DNA from: a virus
Length of the DNA stretch: 43,927 bases
UHGV virus genome: UHGV-1456322
Direction: 5' to 3' (one strand)
The notes beneath the pieces were generated by a model that had not been told where the DNA came from, ran no database searches, and was given only the letters and a program-made list of their open reading frames with translations. Positions 4,866 through 33,837 of this stretch are shown here, one piece after another. Numbering within the stretch: position 1 is the stretch's first letter; each line of letters begins with the position of its first letter. The position numbers and the translations under genes were made by a program.

Positions 4866-7334
4866 TTAGCAGAAGAAGAACGGGGATTCTAGCACTTGCC
4901 GGATGTCCAAAGTGCCCACCTCTGGCATGTCCAGGTCCGTCAAGTCTGCCCCGGCTGCTGCCGCTGCCCGAGTAATATCGCCAAGCAGGTCATTCTCTTC
5001 ATATAGACGCACAAACTGCTCACGGATGTGCCTATGCATAGTGTCGACGTCAGCTGCGTGAGTAGCCAGCGAGTCGTGAATAGGCACAATGTCCAACCCC
5101 TCCGCAGCGCAGAGCACCATCATCAAGTGCGTACTGTCCAGGCTATGCACAAAGTTTGGGGCAATCCCGGAGGCTGCCTTGCGCTTGTTACAAGTTTTGA
5201 AGTCCCGGTTGTGTACCAGTACCGCTGACAGGTTCATGCAGTCAATACGTACACGCACTTCTTCACGCTGCGTGTAACGGTTCATTACGAGCCCGCCCAG
5301 CGGCGTATACCACTGCAGGTGCTGGCTTGCCGGTACGCGTCTAGCGAGATTCTGCAAGTACCCCATAACTGCCGCAGCAGCGGGGTTTGCCTCCTCTATA
5401 GCGGCGCGCATACGCGGTGCCAGGTAGCACGACAGGTTCCACAGACTGTTAGTATCGGTACCCTCGTATCCCTCAGCGCAAGCGCCTTCAAAGATGTAGT
5501 CGCTGCAGCTACGCACCGTGGCGCTGTAGAAGTAGGTCATACTTGGGTGCTTGGTCATGCTGCGGGTGATTTCGTTCTCTCTCCAGTACGTGCTCTGGAT
5601 AACGAAATCCTCCTTGTCCAGGTCCAGTATCACCTTCTCATCCGTGCGGCGCTTCACGTCCATGTACAGGTCCGCTTTCTTGTCGTTACCTTCCCAGTAC
5701 AGGTTCGTCAGACGACCGCCTACAGGGTCTCTCAGGAGCGCTGAGAGGTGCTGTCCACCTGAGTTTGTGGCGTCCATAGCAACCGGAGTTCTGGAGATGT
5801 ACTCTTCTGGGCACGGAGAATCCAGAGCAGCCACCAGGTCGAGCACTGCTGCCAAGAAACACCACGGTGAATCGGCCTGCTTAAAAGCGTCCGAATCAAA
5901 TGGATTCTCTGCAACTGAGCGGACAACTGCCATATTTTTATCCACCCAATCTGCGCGGTCTTCGAATAGGGTTTTGTCATAACCAAAGCAAGTGGCGACA
6001 TGCACTTTAAGCCAGAACAACCCTCTCTCTCCAAGAGGTTTACCTCTACCGAATTCCAGCAGAGCCTTCTGCAAATCAGAACCCTGCGGGTGCAACGAGG
6101 ACTTGAAGTACAGGCGGTAGCGCCAGTCCACACAAGTCGGGAAGTACAGGGCTTTCTCATCTTTGAATTCCTCTGCCATCTCCAACGTAGTCAGAAGGCT
6201 GCGTAGTTGCGACACACGCTTACGGTCAGCACTGTACCACAGGGACATACGCGTCTTCCACTCACCGAAGCGGTCCAGTTCTTCTTCGGTGTAGTTCTCT
6301 TTTGGTACACCATCCAAGTACCACTCAGGCTTCGGCTCCGGTATTGAGCGGGGCATACCTATCCCAATACCCAGGGCCCGTGCTTCTTGCACCAGTTCCA
6401 GTATGCGCTTATTAATACGGTATGGGGTTTCCTGTGCCTTATTAAGCGCCTTCTTGATGCCATCCGCGGACTTAAATGCTTCCGCCACTTCACGCAGCCT
6501 GGAGCGGTCGATGTGCGAGTTATGGTACGTACCGCGGTTGTCGATAGGAGTAAGGTACCCACCATCCCACATAGTGGTGTGCTGCACCGGGGGGACCAGC
6601 ATAGGCGGCTTCATCGTTACAGTGTCGGCAGATTCCACCAGTTTCTGGAAGGCCCCCATAACGTCATCAGCCGGGTAGAGCATGCTCAGGTTCCCGCTAC
6701 CTGTCTTCCACTGGAACAAGCCAGTCTCAAACACCGCGGCACACAGCAGACGCCCTACGGAGATGTTCTGGGCATTGGTCCAAGGCTCGTGCCCATAGTG
6801 CACATTCTCGGCACTGGCACGGAGCGTACGCAGGATGTGCGTAGGGGACTTCGTACGGCGCTCTGTGAGATACTCATATACTCGGTCCATGTACGCTGGG
6901 GCTACGTTGCGTAACTGCAGAGCCAGTAGCTCTGACTGCACGTTCCGGCCCAGTGCGGACATTACCGCCTGCGCAGTCTGGCGGCGACTAGCAGACTCGC
7001 CGGGGGCGACGCTAAACGCTTCAAACATTGTGCACAGGCTCAGTGTGGTCAGGACATCCAAGGGGACTAAGCGCAGGAACCGGCGGTACTTACCACCAAT
7101 GCCCGGGACTTTGACGTTTCGCATCTCGTCGATAGCGGCAGCAGCCACCTCATATGCCGAGGTGAGCATACGCTGCGTCATCGGCAGGTTCATAATCCCG
7201 CCGTTCTGCAATGCGTCCGTAATCAGCTTACGTGCCCGCTCGATTCCGCGAATCTTATAGGTCTCTTCGAGCTCCAGCTGGCGTTTCACCAGTGCTTCCT
7301 CTGGTACTACAACCGTATTCAGGGCGCTAATCAT
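4866..7334 (-). CDS. DNA-directed RNA polymerase, single-subunit T7-like
   Basis: 822 aa; palm motifs DATNSGGQH (motif A-like) and PIHDSL (motif C HDS); size typical of T7/phiKMV RNAPs. Confidence 0.95.
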   Translation of the reverse strand: MISALNTVVVPEEALVKRQLELEETYKIRGIERARKLITDALQNGGIMNLPMTQRMLTSAYEVAAAAIDEMRNVKVPGIGGKYRRFLRLVPLDVLTTLSLCTMFEAFSVAPGESASRRQTAQAVMSALGRNVQSELLALQLRNVAPAYMDRVYEYLTERRTKSPTHILRTLRASAENVHYGHEPWTNAQNISVGRLLCAAVFETGLFQWKTGSGNLSMLYPADDVMGAFQKLVESADTVTMKPPMLVPPVQHTTMWDGGYLTPIDNRGTYHNSHIDRSRLREVAEAFKSADGIKKALNKAQETPYRINKRILELVQEARALGIGIGMPRSIPEPKPEWYLDGVPKENYTEEELDRFGEWKTRMSLWYSADRKRVSQLRSLLTTLEMAEEFKDEKALYFPTCVDWRYRLYFKSSLHPQGSDLQKALLEFGRGKPLGERGLFWLKVHVATCFGYDKTLFEDRADWVDKNMAVVRSVAENPFDSDAFKQADSPWCFLAAVLDLVAALDSPCPEEYISRTPVAMDATNSGGQHLSALLRDPVGGRLTNLYWEGNDKKADLYMDVKRRTDEKVILDLDKEDFVIQSTYWRENEITRSMTKHPSMTYFYSATVRSCSDYIFEGACAEGYEGTDTNSLWNLSCYLAPRMRAAIEEANPAAAAVMGYLQNLARRVPASQHLQWYTPLGGLVMNRYTQREEVRVRIDCMNLSAVLVHNRDFKTCNKRKAASGIAPNFVHSLDSTHLMMVLCAAEGLDIVPIHDSLATHAADVDTMHRHIREQFVRLYEENDLLGDITRAAAAAGADLTDLDMPEVGTLDIRQVLESPFFFC

Positions 7335-13621: not shown

Positions 13622-13684
13622 CTCTGTGAATCACAGAATCAAGCTAGAGTCAACAAATAATTTTATTTAATTATTTAGTTGACC
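13622..13684. promoter_or_regulatory. AT-rich intergenic region with two palindromes (TCTGTGAATCACAGA; GTCAACAAATAATT...AATTATTTAGTTGAC)
   Basis: Perfect 7-1-7 inverted repeat at 13623-13637 and ~35-bp imperfect palindrome at 13649-13683 in a 161-bp non-coding gap after the DNA polymerase module. Confidence 0.4.
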
Positions 13685-13740
13685 CCAGTGTATTTCCATG
13701 CTACCCTAACCCCCTACACCACCCAAGGGTCCACCTATCA

Positions 13741-25466: not shown

Positions 25467-25509
25467 AAAAAAAAAAAGGTAATACAGCATTTATAGTACT
25501 GTATTACCT
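25467..25509 (-). terminator. rho-independent terminator (10-bp stem, 11-nt loop, T12 tract)
   Basis: Minus strand GGTAATACAG-(loop)-CTGTATTACC followed by 12 T; directly downstream of the 25515-26069 gene. Confidence 0.7.
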
Positions 25510-25514
25510 CAAGT

Positions 25515-26069
25515 TTATGCCTTTAGCCACCCCAACGGCTCCGTGAATAGCAGCCTGTTACACTTATGTGTATTAAGCGTTGCGGGTATCACCTGAATGT
25601 TCCCCGCACAGTGTAAGCCGCACACCTCTTTAGCCTTTAGCGGTAGCATATGGTCAATATGCCACGCTATGCCAGTACACTCCGCCCTCTCGGCTGCTAA
25701 AGCGATAGCCTCCAACATAACAAACTCACCCCACTCGCCATACCATGAGGGTACGGATTGAGTACGCGCAGCACGGTATCGCGCATTGTGGCGAACCTTA
25801 CGCTGTAATTGCTCCTCTGTCATAATGTGCTTAGGTCGGCGTGTCTTACGGTACTCTCTCAAGGCCTCTGCCTTACGTACCTGATAAACCTTATGGTACC
25901 CCCGCATACGCTCCTTAGTAGCTGGGCTGGTACTCCTAATCTTAAAGCACTCGGAGCACTCCCCTGAACTGGTGAGGCGCTTTGCCGTGTGCTGGTACTT
26001 ACAGTGCTTCCCTGTGTAGTAGTATGTACTACCAGTGGCTTTAGCCGTAGCCCGACTAGATGGTAACAT
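25515..26069 (-). CDS. HNH / endonuclease VII-like nuclease (~184 aa)
   Basis: Track ORF 25515..26138 trimmed to ATG with AAGGAG RBS; CSEC zinc motif plus HIDHMLPL ... GLHCAGN ... N His-Me finger pattern. Confidence 0.55.
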   Translation of the reverse strand: MLPSSRATAKATGSTYYYTGKHCKYQHTAKRLTSSGECSECFKIRSTSPATKERMRGYHKVYQVRKAEALREYRKTRRPKHIMTEEQLQRKVRHNARYRAARTQSVPSWYGEWGEFVMLEAIALAAERAECTGIAWHIDHMLPLKAKEVCGLHCAGNIQVIPATLNTHKCNRLLFTEPLGWLKA

Positions 26070-26074
26070 GTATA

Positions 26075-26945
26075 ACTCCTTATATATTATAGGGATAGCC
26101 ACTAGGGATAGCACTGTGCTGACACTGGCTGTAGCCAATACTAGCCACGTCTAGCCAATACTATCTAATACTACATAAAGCAGAACGTAGTGACGTAACG
26201 TAAGTGAAGGAACGTAGTGATGCGGTGACTATGTAGTTATGGCAGCCTACTACGTAGGCACAGGGCCATACTAGTGAGTGCCTAGTAGGGACTAGTAAGG
26301 ACTAGTATTAAGTAGTGTATATAGTGCCCTAAAACCCTCCTACTCCTGTAACATCATTTCATAATAGCTTTCGAATGAAAGTAAGAGCAAAGGGATAGCG
26401 CTGGATAGTGCGGTGTGGTGGATGTGCGCCCTAGTGGGGAGCGCGCAGCGTAGCACATAATTAGCACAATGTAAAGCACTAAGGATAGCCAGTGGATAGC
26501 CTAGTGCACACTCGGGATAGCACCAGGCATACCCTATGGCCCCACTGCGCGGGCACTAGACAGGCACTAGGCAGACCCACTGAGGCGCACAAAATAAGCA
26601 AGGCAGAGCACGCCCCTATGGCCCACAGAGAGCGCACAGAGAGCGCACAGGAAGCGCCCTAGTGAACGCACAGTGATAGCCATAGGGTAGCACTGGCAAT
26701 AGCCTTAGAGCGCAGCACAGGCCCGCTGAGGCGCTCTAGTGCGCACTAGCAGGCCCCACCAGTGCCCCCCCCCCTAAATTGACGCTAGGCACCCCCCTAT
26801 GGGGGCAATTGGGCGCGTTGAGGGTGAGGGAGGGGCTCGCGTGAGTCTAATAAATTTCAGGTCCAGGTATAGACGCGCACCCCAGCAGCACCCCAGCAGT
26901 GCCCCGGGATACCGTAGAGATACCCCAGGGAAGCTCTAGAGCTAC
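26075..26945. repeat. non-coding repeat-rich region, candidate genome terminus / terminal-repeat region
   Basis: About 870 bp without ORFs; many distinct 2-copy tandem short repeats (AGGGATAGCCACT, TAGCCAATACTA, ACGTAGTGA, GGACTAGTA, GGATAGCC x3, CACAGAGAGCG, CACCCCAGCAG), C10 tract, GC palindromes. Confidence 0.5.
26337..26357 (-). promoter_or_regulatory. candidate phage RNAP promoter copy (GATGTTACAGGAGTAGGAGG)
   Basis: Exact 16-mer shared with 4843-4858 and 36777-36792. Confidence 0.4.
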
Positions 26946-28901
26946 TTAGAGATACACCTCCCAGGCTACCTGGGATACGTCCGCTGCGTTACTGCTCCTA
27001 ATCACGAAGCTGTTTAGGTCCGGATTAGGTGTAGGCACATCCTGGTTCTGAGCTACGCCAGTAACCGTCAAGGCCCCAGCACTAGAGGGAAAGGTCAACC
27101 GCGTCAACTTAACCTCAGACACCCACTTGAAGGAGTTAGCTACGCTGCCAAAGTTTCCGCGTACACGGGCGTTGACTGTAGCCTCACCAGCCACCAGGGT
27201 TGCCACTCCACGGATACCCGTGTCATCCAGTAAGTTCATGGACATGCGCGGGGGCGTAGGTTGAACGGCGTAGCCGCTCAGCAATGCCCAGAACAAGCCG
27301 TGACCGGTCATGTCGTTATTGGACATAGATACCAGGGTAGGGTCAATGCCCATAGTCCCGTGGAAGTACACAGCTCTCCCGGTACCGTCGTAGCGCATGC
27401 TCACGCCATCAATCTCCAGGGATGTCTGCGCTGTCTCAGCTACGTCCTTAGTAACGAAGATGTGAGAGCTGGAGTTGCGGGTGTACCGACCACCCTTAAC
27501 ACGGCCCCCGTTGATTCGCACACCATTCTGGCTACCGTGAGCCTCGCAGTCATAAACGTAGCCACCGCCGTACGAGCAGTTAAAGCCAGAGCGTACGTTG
27601 TCATAAGCTAGGCACTCCCTATAGATAGGGAAGGCTACACCGGTGTTGGAGGCGAACCCGTCCATAGCTGCACGGTAAGCTCGACAGTTCAAGTACTCTA
27701 CCCCGTTAGTGCGCGCTTGGAACCCATCGTCAGCACTGTCGTACGAAACGCATCGAACGAACTTCACACGCTTACCAATGTCATGAGTATCAAACCCAGC
27801 TTGGGTTGTGTTGTAGGCTTCGCAGTTAACGCCTAAGAACTCGATAGGCTCTCCCCACTTGTCCCCGTCTGCGGTGCTCTGCCAGTTCAGAGAGATTGCG
27901 TGGCGTACGTCCATGGCGTGGATATCGTGTACTTCCGTGTCCTCTGAGCAGCCGAGCACTTCTACCCCATACCATCCGATGTTGTAGAAGTACGTACCCT
28001 TAACAGTACTATCTACGCAGTTATTGAACTTGATAGCACTACGCCCTTCTATATCAGAAGCCCCGGGGCGTTTGTTGCCAATAATAACCCCGTCCTGGAT
28101 GTGCAAGTCCGCGGCAAAGTTGGCAGAGATACCGATAGTAAAGAACCGGTTCAAATCGTCGTAGCCGAACTCGTTGATGTACGGGGATACTAAGGTTACG
28201 TTCTCCACCATTGTCGGGATACCTACTTCCGCGGCATCAGACAGGTAGTAGTTATAGTGCAGCGCTTTATCCAGCCGAATACTGGTGACGCCACCGGAGG
28301 TGCTAACCCCAACCACTTTCCTAATCTGGGAAATCTTTACACCGTACGTGTTAGGACCACCATCACACAGCTTGTTAGAGCGAAGATACAAGTACGTACC
28401 TTTTACCGCAGACAAAGCCCCGGCAGCCACCGTAATGACTTTGCTGCCCGCCGCGGCATCCGCTGCTAACGGTACGAACACCGAGGGTGCCGAGCCGATA
28501 ATATTAAGCACTTGACGTGCAACCGCAGCATCCGGTAGGATTCTTCCGGTATCGGTAAACTCTAGCGTAGAGTTGCTTTTGATGTTGAGCACACTCGTGG
28601 CCTGCAGGACCGTGTCCACAACCAGGTGCCTATTAGGTGCGCTCATGAACGTTACTATGCCCGCCCAATTGCTGAACCAGGAGCTGTATGCCGGACCCAC
28701 GAATTTACGGAGTAGATACCCACCAGGTACAGCAAACACAGTTCCGTTATCCACTACCGACGCGGCAGTAGTAAAGGTGAAGTCCCCACCGGCGCTGCCC
28801 AGCAGGCTAATCTTGTCCCGTACCTGAAAGTTTGGATATGCTACCATGCTCGCCAAGTCGGAGAATACCCGCTCTGGAGCTACTAATCTAATTAACGCCA
28901 T
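26946..28901 (-). CDS. tailspike protein, probable polysaccharide depolymerase (beta-helix)
   Basis: 651 aa; no T7 gp17-like N-terminal anchor; repetitive Gly/Asn/Val-rich segments typical of right-handed beta-helix tailspikes; last gene before genome-end region. Confidence 0.8.
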   Translation of the reverse strand: MALIRLVAPERVFSDLASMVAYPNFQVRDKISLLGSAGGDFTFTTAASVVDNGTVFAVPGGYLLRKFVGPAYSSWFSNWAGIVTFMSAPNRHLVVDTVLQATSVLNIKSNSTLEFTDTGRILPDAAVARQVLNIIGSAPSVFVPLAADAAAGSKVITVAAGALSAVKGTYLYLRSNKLCDGGPNTYGVKISQIRKVVGVSTSGGVTSIRLDKALHYNYYLSDAAEVGIPTMVENVTLVSPYINEFGYDDLNRFFTIGISANFAADLHIQDGVIIGNKRPGASDIEGRSAIKFNNCVDSTVKGTYFYNIGWYGVEVLGCSEDTEVHDIHAMDVRHAISLNWQSTADGDKWGEPIEFLGVNCEAYNTTQAGFDTHDIGKRVKFVRCVSYDSADDGFQARTNGVEYLNCRAYRAAMDGFASNTGVAFPIYRECLAYDNVRSGFNCSYGGGYVYDCEAHGSQNGVRINGGRVKGGRYTRNSSSHIFVTKDVAETAQTSLEIDGVSMRYDGTGRAVYFHGTMGIDPTLVSMSNNDMTGHGLFWALLSGYAVQPTPPRMSMNLLDDTGIRGVATLVAGEATVNARVRGNFGSVANSFKWVSEVKLTRLTFPSSAGALTVTGVAQNQDVPTPNPDLNSFVIRSSNAADVSQVAWEVYL

Positions 28902-29510
28902 TTATCCTCCGGTCTTAGTAAGAGCTGCCACTGCAGCATTTACATTCTTATACTGATTCCCAACGGCCTTGCTCTGCCACTGTCTGCGCTCCCATAGGCC
29001 CCAGCACACTTTATTGCGCTGCCCGTTAATATACTGAGAGCAGTCGAAGGTCCAGCGGTTGCTGCCCTTGTACACCCAACCGATGCCCGGGGATTTCTGC
29101 TGATACTTGCTAATATAGCGCCAGTCCAGTACGGCCTTTCCAGCTTCTGCGTAATTCAGGCTTTTGAGGTGCCGCTTCACAGCACTGCCGTTGAAGCCAG
29201 CTACGCCTACGTTATAAATGAAGTCTACAGACCCAACCAGAGCTACGTCAGAGAGCTGCATAGGAAGCCCGTCAAGGGCCTTTGCATGTGCCCCTGCTGA
29301 TTCTATCAGTTGCTTCTGACAATCGCTCAGCGTGGCTCTCTGGCCCATCTTGACGCCCTTTGTCTCCCCGTAGCAGATTGTAGGGACACCGGCACTATCC
29401 TTATAGGCGGTAAGGCTCAATCCCTCGTTGTGCTGAACCACCCCAGTAATAGCACCACCCAGCATAGTGGCCCCCGTGAGGGCCGCAATAACCTTAGTCC
29501 TTAAACTCAT
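28902..29510 (-). CDS. SAR endolysin (GH24 lysozyme with signal-anchor-release domain)
   Basis: 202 aa; N-terminal Gly/Ala-rich weakly hydrophobic segment VIAALTGATMLGGAITGVV; catalytic E-x8-D-x5-T (NEGLSLTAYKDSAGVPT). Confidence 0.85.
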   Translation of the reverse strand: MSLRTKVIAALTGATMLGGAITGVVQHNEGLSLTAYKDSAGVPTICYGETKGVKMGQRATLSDCQKQLIESAGAHAKALDGLPMQLSDVALVGSVDFIYNVGVAGFNGSAVKRHLKSLNYAEAGKAVLDWRYISKYQQKSPGIGWVYKGSNRWTFDCSQYINGQRNKVCWGLWERRQWQSKAVGNQYKNVNAAVAALTKTGG

Positions 29511-29745
29511 ATTTAATAGTCCCCTTACGCGCCTGCTCTTCTAGGAGCTTGAATGTACGTCGCTTGTAATACGCATTCCACGCCAGGGTTAGCACTGCGC
29601 ACACAGTCGCAGTGATGAAGCTGATAGTGCTCCAGTTCCAGCTCATTAACTCTGCCAACCAACCTCCTGATACCGTAGCACCGGTAACTGCTGCACCTGC
29701 CCGGGTAGCGAGGTCTGCTCCAACCATGTCTCCCACCTTAATCAT
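29494..29745 (-). CDS. holin (pinholin-like, two TM segments)
   Basis: 83 aa; weak TM1 then strong TM2 WSTISFITATVCAVLTLAW, charged C-terminus; overlaps endolysin start. Confidence 0.6.
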   Translation of the reverse strand: MIKVGDMVGADLATRAGAAVTGATVSGGWLAELMSWNWSTISFITATVCAVLTLAWNAYYKRRTFKLLEEQARKGTIKYEFKD

Positions 29746-30142
29746 CCTGCTGCCCCTTCTTCCTGAACAGCTTACGAATCACCAGAATGACCACTAGGAA
29801 GACCAGAGGAATGCTGGCCCCAGCTAATCCGGCGAGGATAAGACTGTAACTATCATTGTTAACCACCTGCAGGCGTTCTGCCTGGATTGTCCCGGTGCTA
29901 ATAGTTTGCACCTGCTTCTTACTGGACGTGTCCAAAGTGCCTACGTTAGAATCCTGTACATCAGTTTTGTTGGTGGTGCTGGAGTCCACCTTGTTATTCA
30001 AGCCAACGGTTTGTTTGGTGTTCTCGGCACCAACCTGAGCAGATACATCCGGCTTAGAACCAACTAATCCGGTGAGTGCAGAGGTCGCCGAGCAACCAGT
30101 CAGAGTAACCGCGAGCAGCAACCCAGCGACCAGTTTACGCAT
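29738..30142 (-). CDS. unimolecular spanin (u-spanin)-like lipoprotein with C-terminal TM
   Basis: 134 aa; lipoprotein signal MRKLVAGLLLAVTLTGC (lipobox LTGC), S/T/N/Q/V-rich middle, C-terminal TM plus basic tail; immediately upstream of holin. Confidence 0.55.
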   Translation of the reverse strand: MRKLVAGLLLAVTLTGCSATSALTGLVGSKPDVSAQVGAENTKQTVGLNNKVDSSTTNKTDVQDSNVGTLDTSSKKQVQTISTGTIQAERLQVVNNDSYSLILAGLAGASIPLVFLVVILVIRKLFRKKGQQDD

Positions 30143-30324
30143 TAGCTAGCAGCCTTCACTGCGGCCACCGCGGCTTCAAGCGCAGCAATCTTGGTATCGA
30201 AGGCAGCACCAGTCTGGGCCACGTTCTGCGGCTGCGTAAGGATAGCATACAGGTCCTTACCGAGAATGTTCAGCTGACGCAACAGCTCCTGCTGTTGCGC
30301 TGAGGTTGCTTTTGCAATTGCCAT
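30142..30324 (-). CDS. hypothetical protein (60 aa), predicted helical
   Basis: Minus ORF between terminase module and lysis cassette; AAGGAGAG RBS. Confidence 0.4.
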   Translation of the reverse strand: MAIAKATSAQQQELLRQLNILGKDLYAILTQPQNVAQTGAAFDTKIAALEAAVAAVKAAS

Positions 30325-30335
30325 GTGTACTCTCC

Positions 30336-30710
30336 TTATTCTGCCGCATCAGTGGCGGCTACGAATGCACTCTGCAGTGCAGTGAACGAATCATCAAACG
30401 CTGTACCGGAGCCCTCACCGAGCGGCATACCTGTACCTGTAGGGGCAACGTAGCCGGTCTTAGAGAGCTGTGACAGCATGCTGAACAGGCGCGCCTGCAG
30501 CGTACCGTCATCCTTAAAGGCTGTACCGGCACGGGTAGCCGTATAGCCCTGGGACTGCATGTACGTGAAGAACGCGTTCAGCTTAGTCAGGGCAGTCGTA
30601 CCTACGAAGCCTACGTTGTAGTCCGGCTGCACCTGCTTCTCCAGGTTCTGGCACGTGCCCACAATGGCGTACTGGACGTCCGCAGTTTTAGCTGCGATGA
30701 TTGATGCCAT
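30336..30710 (-). CDS. hypothetical protein (124 aa)
   Basis: Start overlaps terminase large subunit stop. Confidence 0.45.
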   Translation of the reverse strand: MASIIAAKTADVQYAIVGTCQNLEKQVQPDYNVGFVGTTALTKLNAFFTYMQSQGYTATRAGTAFKDDGTLQARLFSMLSQLSKTGYVAPTGTGMPLGEGSGTAFDDSFTALQSAFVAATDAAE

Positions 30711-32566
30711 TATCTTCTTCCTCTATGTTGTTTACCTCTGCCCCGGTTATGTAGCCGAGCAGCTACACCACGAAAGCCCTTAGACACTTTGCTCTGTGCC
30801 CAATCCAGTGGGTTCTCAATGAAGGCCCGAGCCATCTTCTCAGACTCACGCTCCGCCACCACTTTCTCATCTTCCACCAGATGCCCATTCAGCGTAGCCA
30901 CCATCATGGCGATTGCGTCTGCCCGGTCATCCTTCGCAAGGCTACCGCGGTCGTACGTGATACCGGACAACTGCGCGAACGCAGAGTACAGCCAACGCCT
31001 ATCGCGGGAATATGCCATACAGGTACTGATATCGTCGTGAATAGCACGCTCATGCACTACCAGGCGATGGCGACGAGTAACTGGGCTGATTGTGTCGATG
31101 ATACGACGCTCTTTCTGCGTGCAGTTATTCAGGTCCCTTACACCGATACCGGCGAGACGCCGCTCACGTAATCGGTTCAGGATAAGCATAGACACGGTAC
31201 CGTGCCCCATATTGCTCTCCACCACCATATCCGGGATGTCCAACTCTACACACAGGTCAATCAGTTTATCAATGTTCTCTTCGCTGATACCTCCTTGGAA
31301 TCCGCCTACGGAGAATAGGTGAATGTACGAGTTCGCAGCGCCTCCAGCAGCGTAGGACACTTCGTCCCCACCACAACCAGCCGGGTCCACTACCAGTACC
31401 TTATGCTGGTACGGAAGGTGCATATCCCCGTAGAATGCCGGGAAGTACATCTGCTGGCCCATAATCCCTTCATGCTCGTGCTGGTACAGATACCGGCGGT
31501 CCGCGATGTAGGAGAACGTCTCCGGGGAGGAATCCTGGCTGCCAGAGTAAACCAGCACATCCGATAGCTTGATGCGCGTACGCATTTGGTCGGACAGGGT
31601 GGTGTCGAGCATGTACTGCAGCTGGAAGCCTTCCGGACCAAAGTCCAGCTCCTTCTCAATCAGCGCATCCTCGTCATAGCGCCCGGTGTCCGTGCTCTCG
31701 CCTAGCGTCCCGTCGACTCCGAAGCCGGTGCGTTTATAGCCGCGCTCAATAAGCTCCAGGATATAAGGAGCAAGTGTACTTCCATATCGCTCTTCCATTT
31801 CAACAGACGGAACGCGCCCGGGCCACACGCGGACCTCGAAGCCACGTCCCGGCAGGGTTTTATAGATACTGTCCTTGGTCTGTGGTGTACCCAGGTACAG
31901 CGTATCCCCGTGCGTACAGATAGCCGCGAAGTCTTTAGAAATCATCAGCAGCTGCTCACGCTGGGTTTGCGTTAAACCATTCTTGGTGGTCTCGATATCA
32001 TCCGGAATCAGCAGGTCCGCGCGCTTACCCTGCAGGGATGCAGTGATACCTACACAGGCTACGCTGGCGGATTTCTCCAGCGGCTTAAGGTCACAGTGTA
32101 CGTCATAACCTTCGAATGAAGTACGGTCCCCACGAGTAGGATCAGCCTTCAAATAGCACAGCAGCGGCCATGTCTCAATCATACGAATGATTAAGTTCGC
32201 TACGTCGGACGCCTGCTTCTCTGCACCGGACACAATCAGGATACGGCAGGATTGGTCCTGGATGAGCCTCCAGACGGCGTACAGTGCAGCTAGTGTAGAC
32301 TTAGCCTCACCACGCTGCGCGGCCACCATGCGCTTCCGGGGGCCCTTCTGCATGTACTCTGCAATGTCGGCCTGCATGTCCGTGAGCGTAAAGCCCAGGA
32401 ACCGCATACCGATGTACGCGAATTCCCGGAAGTCGCTTAGTGCCGCGGCCATCATCACCGCGATATCCTCGCGCTCCTCTTTGGGAATACTGCGCGGATT
32501 CGCACTATAACCAGTAAGTTTCTGGTTGAGCATGCGCAGTCTTCGCGCAGTCTTCACCGATACCAT
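30710..32566 (-). CDS. terminase large subunit (T7 gp19-like)
   Basis: 618 aa; ATPase P-loop-like RGEAKST, overall pattern of T7-type DNA maturase B as recalled. Confidence 0.9.
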   Translation of the reverse strand: MVSVKTARRLRMLNQKLTGYSANPRSIPKEEREDIAVMMAAALSDFREFAYIGMRFLGFTLTDMQADIAEYMQKGPRKRMVAAQRGEAKSTLAALYAVWRLIQDQSCRILIVSGAEKQASDVANLIIRMIETWPLLCYLKADPTRGDRTSFEGYDVHCDLKPLEKSASVACVGITASLQGKRADLLIPDDIETTKNGLTQTQREQLLMISKDFAAICTHGDTLYLGTPQTKDSIYKTLPGRGFEVRVWPGRVPSVEMEERYGSTLAPYILELIERGYKRTGFGVDGTLGESTDTGRYDEDALIEKELDFGPEGFQLQYMLDTTLSDQMRTRIKLSDVLVYSGSQDSSPETFSYIADRRYLYQHEHEGIMGQQMYFPAFYGDMHLPYQHKVLVVDPAGCGGDEVSYAAGGAANSYIHLFSVGGFQGGISEENIDKLIDLCVELDIPDMVVESNMGHGTVSMLILNRLRERRLAGIGVRDLNNCTQKERRIIDTISPVTRRHRLVVHERAIHDDISTCMAYSRDRRWLYSAFAQLSGITYDRGSLAKDDRADAIAMMVATLNGHLVEDEKVVAERESEKMARAFIENPLDWAQSKVSKGFRGVAARLHNRGRGKQHRGRR

Positions 32567-32868
32567 TAGACAATTCCTTCTAGTAAGTCCTCAGAGTCTG
32601 AACCACCAACTTTATTTAGAATCTCTTGCTTACGCGCCTCTCTGCGCGCCACTAGCTCGTCATCGAATTCGTCACGAAGGTCCTGCATCTCCTCGGAATC
32701 TGCGTCCGCGGTGATGTCGTTATCCTTCAAGAACTTAGCAATGACCGATTTATCTGCTGCGGGGAGCGGCACCTCATCTTCCTTAGACTGCTTGATTTCT
32801 TCAAGCAAGGCCTCGGTGAACATACGGTGCAGCTCCGAGAGGCGACTGCGTTTAGCTGCCCCTGCCAT
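32566..32868 (-). CDS. terminase small subunit (T7 gp18-like), putative
   Basis: 100 aa acidic helical protein immediately upstream of and overlapping terminase large subunit; AGGAG RBS; assignment by synteny. Confidence 0.55.
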   Translation of the reverse strand: MAGAAKRSRLSELHRMFTEALLEEIKQSKEDEVPLPAADKSVIAKFLKDNDITADADSEEMQDLRDEFDDELVARREARKQEILNKVGGSDSEDLLEGIV

Positions 32869-32880
32869 GCTCTTCTCCTA

Positions 32881-33837
32881 TCATGTAGTCAGCACCCCAC
32901 TGGTGCGTAGCGCTGCCAGCAGTGCGTTAAATTTAGCCACTACATCCCCGGTGCCGGTTGCGTTGGATACAGCTGCAGCCTTGTCCAGATACGCCAAATC
33001 TCCCAAAGAGTCGGCTAAGTAATCTAGGGATGCTTGCGTAGCAAAACCGTCCCCCGCAGTTACATCAACCCCCAGCCGAGCGGCTACAATAGTGCCTGCA
33101 GGTAAGGTCTCTGCAAACAGTATGGTATTATCTACAATATCGAAACTGTAGCCACGAATCTGCCCAACCCCGTTAACCTCTACTACAGCCTTAGTGAAGG
33201 CTAAGCCTGGAGTTACTTCGTCCGTATCAGTGGCCAGGACCGTGCTCCACGGGTAGCTTACCGTCTCTACACCGCTTATAAAGGTGTTCTCCAAGGCGGA
33301 GGTACGGGCACTCAGCGCGTCATCTGCTGCCTTCCGTGTAACGGCTTCGGCCTGTACAGCGGATACCCACCCCGAATGCTCTGCGTCAATGCGCTGTCCT
33401 AGTAAGGCATCGGCGGCATCTACATAAGCCTTAGTGGCGGCATCTTGGGCACTGATTGGGTTGGCTAAGTTGGTTATCCGGTACCCGTTCATGCTGATAG
33501 CGCCATAGAATCCGGGTATAGCCCGGCCCTCCACTAGTTCCTGCGCAAGGTGCAGGAACTGCGTGTTTTGGGAGTCTACGTTTACCTCAATGAACGGAGA
33601 ACCACTGGCGAACTCAATGTACAGATACTCTCGCTCTGTCTTACGGATTAGTAGCACAGTAGTGCTTGCCGCTAAGGCCGAATTGAGCCTGATATTAGTA
33701 GAGCTGGTCCAGGTGTACCCAGTGGTTTCCACACCGTCTAGGTATACATGAATATAGGACTTGTCCAAATATTCAATATCGCACTGGATATCCTGGGTAC
33801 CAGCTGGCTTGATTTGTTCTTGCCAGCTGTATGCCAT
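32881..33837 (-). CDS. tail fiber / tailspike adaptor protein with T7 gp17-like N-terminal domain
   Basis: 318 aa; segment GYRITNLANPISAQDAATKAYVD resembles the T7 gp17 N-terminal region (RRIVNLANAVDDRDAVPFGQL) as recalled; too short for a receptor-binding fiber. Confidence 0.75.
   Translation of the reverse strand: MAYSWQEQIKPAGTQDIQCDIEYLDKSYIHVYLDGVETTGYTWTSSTNIRLNSALAASTTVLLIRKTEREYLYIEFASGSPFIEVNVDSQNTQFLHLAQELVEGRAIPGFYGAISMNGYRITNLANPISAQDAATKAYVDAADALLGQRIDAEHSGWVSAVQAEAVTRKAADDALSARTSALENTFISGVETVSYPWSTVLATDTDEVTPGLAFTKAVVEVNGVGQIRGYSFDIVDNTILFAETLPAGTIVAARLGVDVTAGDGFATQASLDYLADSLGDLAYLDKAAAVSNATGTGDVVAKFNALLAALRTSGVLTT

Follow-up and report, generated by a model that had tools for sequence, protein, structure and literature searches.

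The window analysed here, a stretch of 43,927 nucleotides (nt) from the UHGV virus genome UHGV-1456322, carries two fibre genes on its minus strand, and both open reading frames (ORFs) were found as the preliminary description had given them. The first encodes a protein of 318 amino acids (aa) at 32881-33837 and the second a protein of 651 aa at 26946-28901, each beginning with ATG. By homology to a known phage protein (ORF34), to PDB entries 7W1C/D/E and to Pfam and PHROG families, the 651-aa product was assigned as a tailspike, namely a K1 capsule-specific polysaccharide lyase and the second receptor-binding protein of the phage. The 318-aa product was assigned as the first receptor-binding protein, a short anchor or adaptor fibre, from PF03906, homology to ORF28 and PDB 23sh_r. 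Judged from these sequences, the 651-aa protein is very probably the virion tailspike and the sole capsule depolymerase of a KP34-like Klebsiella podophage, presumably hung on the 318-aa fibre and setting a K1 host range. The identity of the proteins, their domains and catalytic residues, the gene order, the terminal position and the reassortment of tailspike bodies were established in this analysis, while the enzymology and the fold were taken from the literature.

The 651-aa protein was compared with the K1 lyase ORF34 of phage NTUH-K2044-K1-1 (YP_009098385.1), and 639 of the 651 residues (98%) were identical, with no gaps and twelve substitutions relative to RefSeq. The phmmer match to PDB 7W1C/7W1D/7W1E ('K1 lyase') had an E-value of 0 over residues 1-651 and reached 1445 bits for 7W1C, and the match to phrog_18512 scored 1343 bits. 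Three Pfam domains were above the cut-off of 27, namely PF24145 K1-lyase_N (residues 1-71, 132 bits), PF24149 K1-lyase_Rider (141-230, 130 bits) and PF24146 K1-lyase_C (563-649, 61 bits), and a Beta_helix match at residues 359-466 (24.8 bits) fell slightly below its cut-off of 25.9. Moreover, 50 phage records, including NTUH-K2044-K1-1 and KpV71, contained most of the tailspike gene at roughly 90-98% nucleotide identity, and GBH001 (OU509534.1) was among the near-identical matches to the N-terminal 76 aa. The K1 specificity of the 651-aa depolymerases of NTUH-K2044-K1-1, KpV71 (KpV71_52) and GBH001 (GBH001_056) has been experimentally verified (PMC11652154), and the window tailspike resembles them in length, domains, catalytic and sugar-binding residues and place after the endolysin.

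The fold of the window tailspike was taken from the solved structure of the 98%-identical protein. The crystal structure of the K1 lyase, at 1.46 Å, is a homotrimer with a 14-rung right-handed beta-helix (71-559), a protruding 'rider' and a C-terminal beta-sandwich (Tu et al. 2022, PMC8822698), and its N-terminus forms a five-stranded barrel (Glu10-Pro70) termed the 'putative particle-binding domain'. The corresponding layout of the window protein would be the N-terminal peptide MALIRLV, a barrel at about 10-70, a beta-helix at 71-559 with the rider at about 141-230, and a C-terminal beta-sandwich. The beta-helix expected in the preliminary description is therefore the fold of a crystallised near-identical trimer. 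The catalytic residues of the enzyme are Tyr311, His373 and Arg397, which cut the K1 capsule through a syn beta-elimination, and there is a second, non-catalytic sugar pocket between subunits, where Arg472 is required for depolymerisation, phage adsorption and infectivity (PMC8822698). Y311, H373, R397 and R472 were all kept in the window tailspike and did not vary among 16 other natural homologues taken from IMG/VR (95-99% identical to it), and all 20 of the catalytic and sugar-contacting residues named in PMC8822698 were present as named. At residue 256, the window tailspike, the paper and the PDB sequence have Ile, while the RefSeq ORF34 has Ser. At residues 391-392 (about 27726-27731), Asp-Asp was found in the window, the RefSeq ORF34 and the 16 homologues, and Ala-Ala in the crystallised construct 7W1C/D/E. 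On this sequence evidence, the gene encodes an unexceptional natural variant of a known, crystallised enzyme, the K1 capsule lyase tailspike of KP34-like Klebsiella phages.

The 318-aa protein had been described as a short fibre with a T7 gp17-like N-terminal anchor, and this was confirmed by a PF03906 match that spans residues 13-141 and scores 71.9 bits (E = 6e-20; cut-off 25.2). No enzymatic domain was found in it by the Pfam scan, the only other match being a sub-threshold one to a head fibre. Its identity to ORF28 of NTUH-K2044-K1-1 was 92%, and it matched the solved 307-aa 'tail fiber gp9' (PDB 23sh_r) with E = 3e-175. More distant matches were obtained to fibre proteins in the solved tails of HRP29 (8ES4), PhiM1 (8VBX), Kp7 and Kp9 (7Y22, 7XY1/7Y1C), cyanophage P-SCSP1u and T7. 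The literature was searched for cryo-electron microscopy of Drulisvirus tails and for four structure entries (23sh, 8es4, 8vbx and 9k4a). This brought up no publication on 23sh, the structure nearest to the adaptor; 8VBX was mentioned only in a PhiM1 ejectosome paper, and 8ES4 in a preprint on phiKMV-like phages. The AlphaFold model of the fibre was of low confidence (mean predicted local distance difference test score 56, predicted template modelling score 0.26) and consisted of an N-terminal beta domain, a helix at 130-185, a beta domain at 197-255 and C-terminal helices; the homologue set behind it was too uniform (88-97% identical). Foldseek with this model returned the fibre anchors in the tail complexes of T7, HRP29, PhiM1, Kp7 and Kp9, and, because the model is poor, these matches are solid only for the N-terminal gp17-type anchor. 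T7 gp17 has a similar N-terminal attachment domain (PF03906; Foldseek matches 7BOZ, 7EY9 and 8E4G), but its distal receptor-binding tip has no counterpart in the 318-aa fibre, which stops shortly past the shaft. No distal C-terminal tip domain was seen, the matches to the T7 gp17 structures reaching only to about residue 145. As the protein ends without a distal tip, it was not classed as a complete T7 gp17-type receptor-binding fibre.

The tailspike, in turn, had been said to lack such an anchor. This is correct insofar as PF03906 was absent from the 651-aa protein in the Pfam scan, but the protein is not without an attachment region, as it has both an N-terminal peptide of the form MALxxLV and the 60-residue barrel (Glu10-Pro70). 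Its start, MALIRLV, fits the docking peptide described by Latka et al. (2019, PMC6872550) for group A of the KP34viruses, in which a truncated first fibre serves as the anchor and the second fibre starts with MALxxLV. In the table of the same paper, NTUH-K2044-K1-1 is placed in group A with a first fibre of 318 aa and a second fibre of 651 aa, and only MALxxLV is common to the other second fibres. The preliminary description had called this modular arrangement typical of capsule-depolymerase phages; it does match the group A model, but it is typical of the genus Drulisvirus rather than of such phages in general, and the KP32-like phages differ, since their two fibre genes are adjacent (PMC6872550).

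The pairing of the two proteins was surveyed in 60 IMG/VR contigs retrieved with the adaptor, 47 of which contained a full-length tailspike. The tailspike gene directly followed the endolysin gene in all 47, and the tailspikes fell into 18 clusters of unrelated bodies. Conservation within the heptapeptide was high, with Ala at position 2 in 43, Leu at position 3 in 45, Leu at position 6 in 40 and Val at position 7 in 41 of the 47 tailspikes. The N-terminal 76 residues were also considered as a widely shared attachment domain and were rejected, as they occurred only in K1-lyase phages and in 12 further records at less than 60% identity (42-46% in the eight listed). Because this region is restricted to K1-type enzymes, the element common to the tailspikes is the heptapeptide alone. 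Furthermore, adaptors 97% identical to the 318-aa fibre of the window accompanied an unrelated 577-aa tailspike (L003 and L004), and the K1 lyase was found with first fibres of 307, 318, 541 and 858 aa. The 541-aa first fibre stood with the K1 lyase at loci L030, L031, L033 and L034, and the 858-aa first fibre at a single locus, the likely carrier L052. In relatives of this kind, with the K1 lyase and a long first fibre (541 or 858 aa), that fibre probably bears a second depolymerase; they are 'group B' phages with two specificities, whereas the phage of the window has one.

The same picture was obtained from comparison with known systems. The type pair of KP34, a 307-aa fibre with KP34gp57, has the same two-gene architecture as the window, with the terminase and lysis genes between the fibres; the anchor fibres of the window and of the KP34 contig (L020) shared 88% identity, and the heptapeptide was the same. 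However, KP34gp57 is a K63-specific enzyme whose body is unrelated to that of the window tailspike, the heptapeptide alone being in common (PMC6872550). Conversely, the K1-specific depolymerase of PDB 9K4A/9K4B (922 aa) has a homologous body, residues 46-650 of the window tailspike aligning to its residues 335-921 (E = 3e-94), but the lyase is there fused to a different N-terminal attachment region of about 330 residues, so that the same enzymatic module is found on another anchoring system. The body swaps, the variable first fibres and the lyase on another N-terminus (9K4A) together are the mark of a host-range module that can be exchanged behind a docking peptide of minimal size. In the coliphages K1-5 and K1E, Salmonella phage SP6 and the G7C gp66/gp63.1 branch, a tailspike is likewise docked on an intermediate protein by a very short conserved N-terminal peptide (PMC6872550). 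The adaptors of these phages, however, offer one complete gp10-like docking site or two, and the tailspike genes stand side by side, whereas the fibre genes of the window lie about 4 kilobases apart and a gp10-like fragment was unconfirmed.

The following mechanism is proposed. By its near-identity to the K1 lyase of NTUH-K2044-K1-1, the tailspike would form a homotrimer of right-handed beta-helices. The K1 capsular polysaccharide would be bound in an intrasubunit groove and then cleaved by syn beta-elimination, with Tyr311 as the base, His373 as the acid and Arg397 as the neutraliser of the carboxylate, while a non-catalytic pocket between subunits, centred on Arg472 and required for adsorption, would grip the pyruvylated sugar. 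Digestion of the capsule would open access for the phage to the cell surface, and because access is gained in this manner, the tailspike would restrict the host range to K1 strains. The claim that this gene is the host-range determinant is thus well founded, given the homology to the K1 lyase (PMC8822698) and the group A model (PMC6872550). On the virion, the tailspike would be held by its N-terminus, where the MALIRLV peptide and the small barrel would dock on the 318-aa fibre; the T7 gp17-like N-terminal domain of this fibre would in turn fasten it to the tail.

Several points weigh against this reading. That the tailspike physically touches the 318-aa fibre is our inference. A T4 gp10-like branching fragment at about aa 186-242 of the first fibre has been proposed as the docking site from deep profiles (HHpred 83-94%; Latka et al. 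2019, PMC6872550), but it was not reproduced here: an hhalign comparison of the adaptor profile with T4 gp10 gave a probability of 0.2%, which is no evidence of absence as the profile (effective number of sequences 1.1) was too shallow to inform. With the poor adaptor model, Foldseek matched the gp10-like part of the CBA120 TSP4 N-terminus weakly (E = 4e-3 to 7e-3), which is suggestive at best. In addition, R28, S32, A545 and M555 of the window tailspike were unseen in the 16 compared homologues. The identification of the tailspike itself is uncontradicted, and all weak points concern the docking.

Other explanations of the two genes were weighed. It is unlikely, though the least unlikely of these, that the 318-aa fibre also binds a conserved secondary receptor, a lipopolysaccharide or an outer-membrane protein, after the capsule is removed, so that the phage would have two functional receptor binders. 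The roughly 50 residues past the proposed docking region (268-318) are predicted to be helical and are well conserved, and the fibre remains 61-100% identical across phages with 18 different tailspike bodies, which fits a partner on the cell and a purely structural role alike. On the other hand, no recognisable receptor-binding or enzymatic domain was found in it with Pfam or PHROG, Latka et al. (PMC6872550) class the short first fibre as truncated and without activity, and in relatives the same N-terminal 271 residues run on into depolymerase-bearing fibres of 541-946 aa, so that the short form suggests truncation. We would give a slightly lower chance still to the combined case that the short fibre may be more than a scaffold and also bind a conserved secondary receptor under the capsule, infection then needing two recognition steps in succession by two proteins, or that R28, S32, A545 and M555 may alter docking or product length.

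The tailspike could instead be fixed directly to the nozzle or adaptor ring of the tail by its own barrel domain, with the 318-aa fibre as an independent appendage. The unconfirmed gp10-like docking fragment in the fibre would be consistent with such an arrangement, but we consider it improbable, because just seven residues are conserved among the 18 tailspike types and the barrel domain is not, although one would expect a domain that binds the tail to be as conserved as the tail. The solved relatives Kp7, Kp9, PhiM1, HRP29 and T7, moreover, show the gp17-type N-terminus at the fibre sites of the tail. Depolymerase phages make spreading halos, which implies that some enzyme is free, and the tailspike gene is translationally adjacent to that of the endolysin; a 651-aa protein acting mainly as a soluble enzyme freed at lysis, and encoded beside the lysis genes for that reason rather than as a component of the virion, would account for both. 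This is hardly credible, however, as the second-site mutation R472A harms phage adsorption and infectivity (PMC8822698), which needs the tailspike on the particle, and as the N-terminal peptide common to Drulisvirus second fibres is conserved in the protein. Docking of the tailspike on the short fibre stands as the preferred reading.

The feature is already known in every checkable respect: the gene, its structure, mechanism and specificity, its genomic position and the modular model. Its value here is one of annotation, as the gene predicts that the phage infects Klebsiella pneumoniae with the K1 capsule, the hypervirulent liver-abscess type, and marks the module to be exchanged in host-range engineering. 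The enzyme family of the K1 lyase has already been used in capsule typing, anti-virulence therapy and the preparation of glycoconjugate vaccines (PMC8822698, PMC8978995).

The genes between the two fibres were annotated on the same minus strand. Downstream of the 318-aa fibre, the small (32566-32868) and large (30710-32566) terminase subunits were recognised together by PF11123 and PF22530, and their placement matched ORF29 and ORF30 of NTUH-K2044-K1-1. They were followed by two small conserved ORFs of 124 aa (30336-30710) and 60 aa (30142-30324), each with a full-length match in the phrog_7375 and phrog_7128 pair of families, which have no assigned function. The lysis genes came next and consisted of an Rz-like spanin (134 aa, 29738-30142; phrog_1804, E = 6e-52) that bears a lipoprotein signal at residues 1-18 (LPAM_1), a holin (83 aa, 29494-29745; PF04971, E = 6e-6; phrog_20 holin, E = 5e-17) and an endolysin (202 aa, 28902-29510; PF00959 Phage_lysozyme, E = 1e-20). 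The tailspike gene therefore does lie after the lysis cassette, as had been noted; its ATG comes immediately after the TAA that ends the endolysin gene, GGAGG lies 5 nt upstream of this ATG, and the junction reads GGAGGATAAATG. The order of first fibre, terminases, small ORFs, lysis genes and second fibre is that of ORF28 to ORF34 in NTUH-K2044-K1-1, and with the genome end after the second fibre it agrees with the group A fibre system.

NTUH-K2044-K1-1 is a Klebsiella phage of the genus Drulisvirus, Autographiviridae. The window aligned to it end to end in permuted order at 76-97% nucleotide identity, and the relatives nearest to it in the database, about 90% identical, were other Klebsiella phages of this genus. 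Based on this alignment and these relatives, the window is identified as a complete KP34-like (Drulisvirus, Autographiviridae) podophage genome, given as the reverse complement and circularly permuted. All of its long ORFs are on the minus strand, and its G+C content is about 54%. An overlap of the window ends, as a sign of a circular assembly artefact, was looked for and none was found.

The direct terminal repeat of NTUH-K2044-K1-1 is 234 base pairs (bp) long, and the ends of this genome aligned to 26828-26132 (left end at about 26828) and 26871-26606 (right end at 26606) of the window. Five linear isolate records, independent of one another, were also aligned, among them the contigs of KP34 (43,809 bp) and KpV475 (42,201 bp), and the right end of every one mapped exactly to 26606. 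From these homologous ends, a single collapsed copy of the repeat, about 223 bp long (26606-26828, minus strand), is predicted to occur once, inside the window rather than at its edge. The tailspike gene is thus next to the terminus, as had been stated, but this terminus lies within the window. With the right end placed at 26606 by homology, the tailspike would be the last gene of the window genome, about 118 nt before the terminal repeat, and no ORF of at least 60 aa was found from the tailspike stop (26946) down to 26139. The claim that the tailspike is encoded last is accordingly true of this genome and not of all relatives: a 153-aa ORF between the tailspike and the end, absent in the window, was present in NTUH-K2044-K1-1, where it follows ORF34 and is annotated as an HNH endonuclease, and roughly ten of the 47 contigs with a full-length tailspike have a 153-aa ORF there as well.

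Within the predicted terminal repeat, a run of 10 G on the minus strand was seen at 26765-26774, and the 11-mer CTGTGCGCTCT is repeated in tandem about 2.7 times at about 26622-26651. A terminator-like hairpin at 26600-26616 coincides exactly with the predicted right end. The first ORF beyond the terminal region (25515-26138, minus strand, 207 aa, TTG start) matched phrog_1035 'endonuclease VII' (E = 5e-21), with no Pfam match and no counterpart in NTUH-K2044-K1-1. Directly after it, at 25476-25510, is the strongest terminator-like hairpin of the region (14-bp stem, T10). All three annotated HNH endonuclease genes of NTUH-K2044-K1-1 (ORF35, ORF10 and ORF18) were without counterpart in the window, the alignment skipping each at junctions of about 26836-26871, about 13655-13699 and about 4873-4875 (L001 43143-43604, 12689-13048 and 20851-21327, respectively). 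The two alignments on either side of the ORF35 site have about 36 bp in common, which is what a short repeat at the insertion site of a mobile gene would produce.

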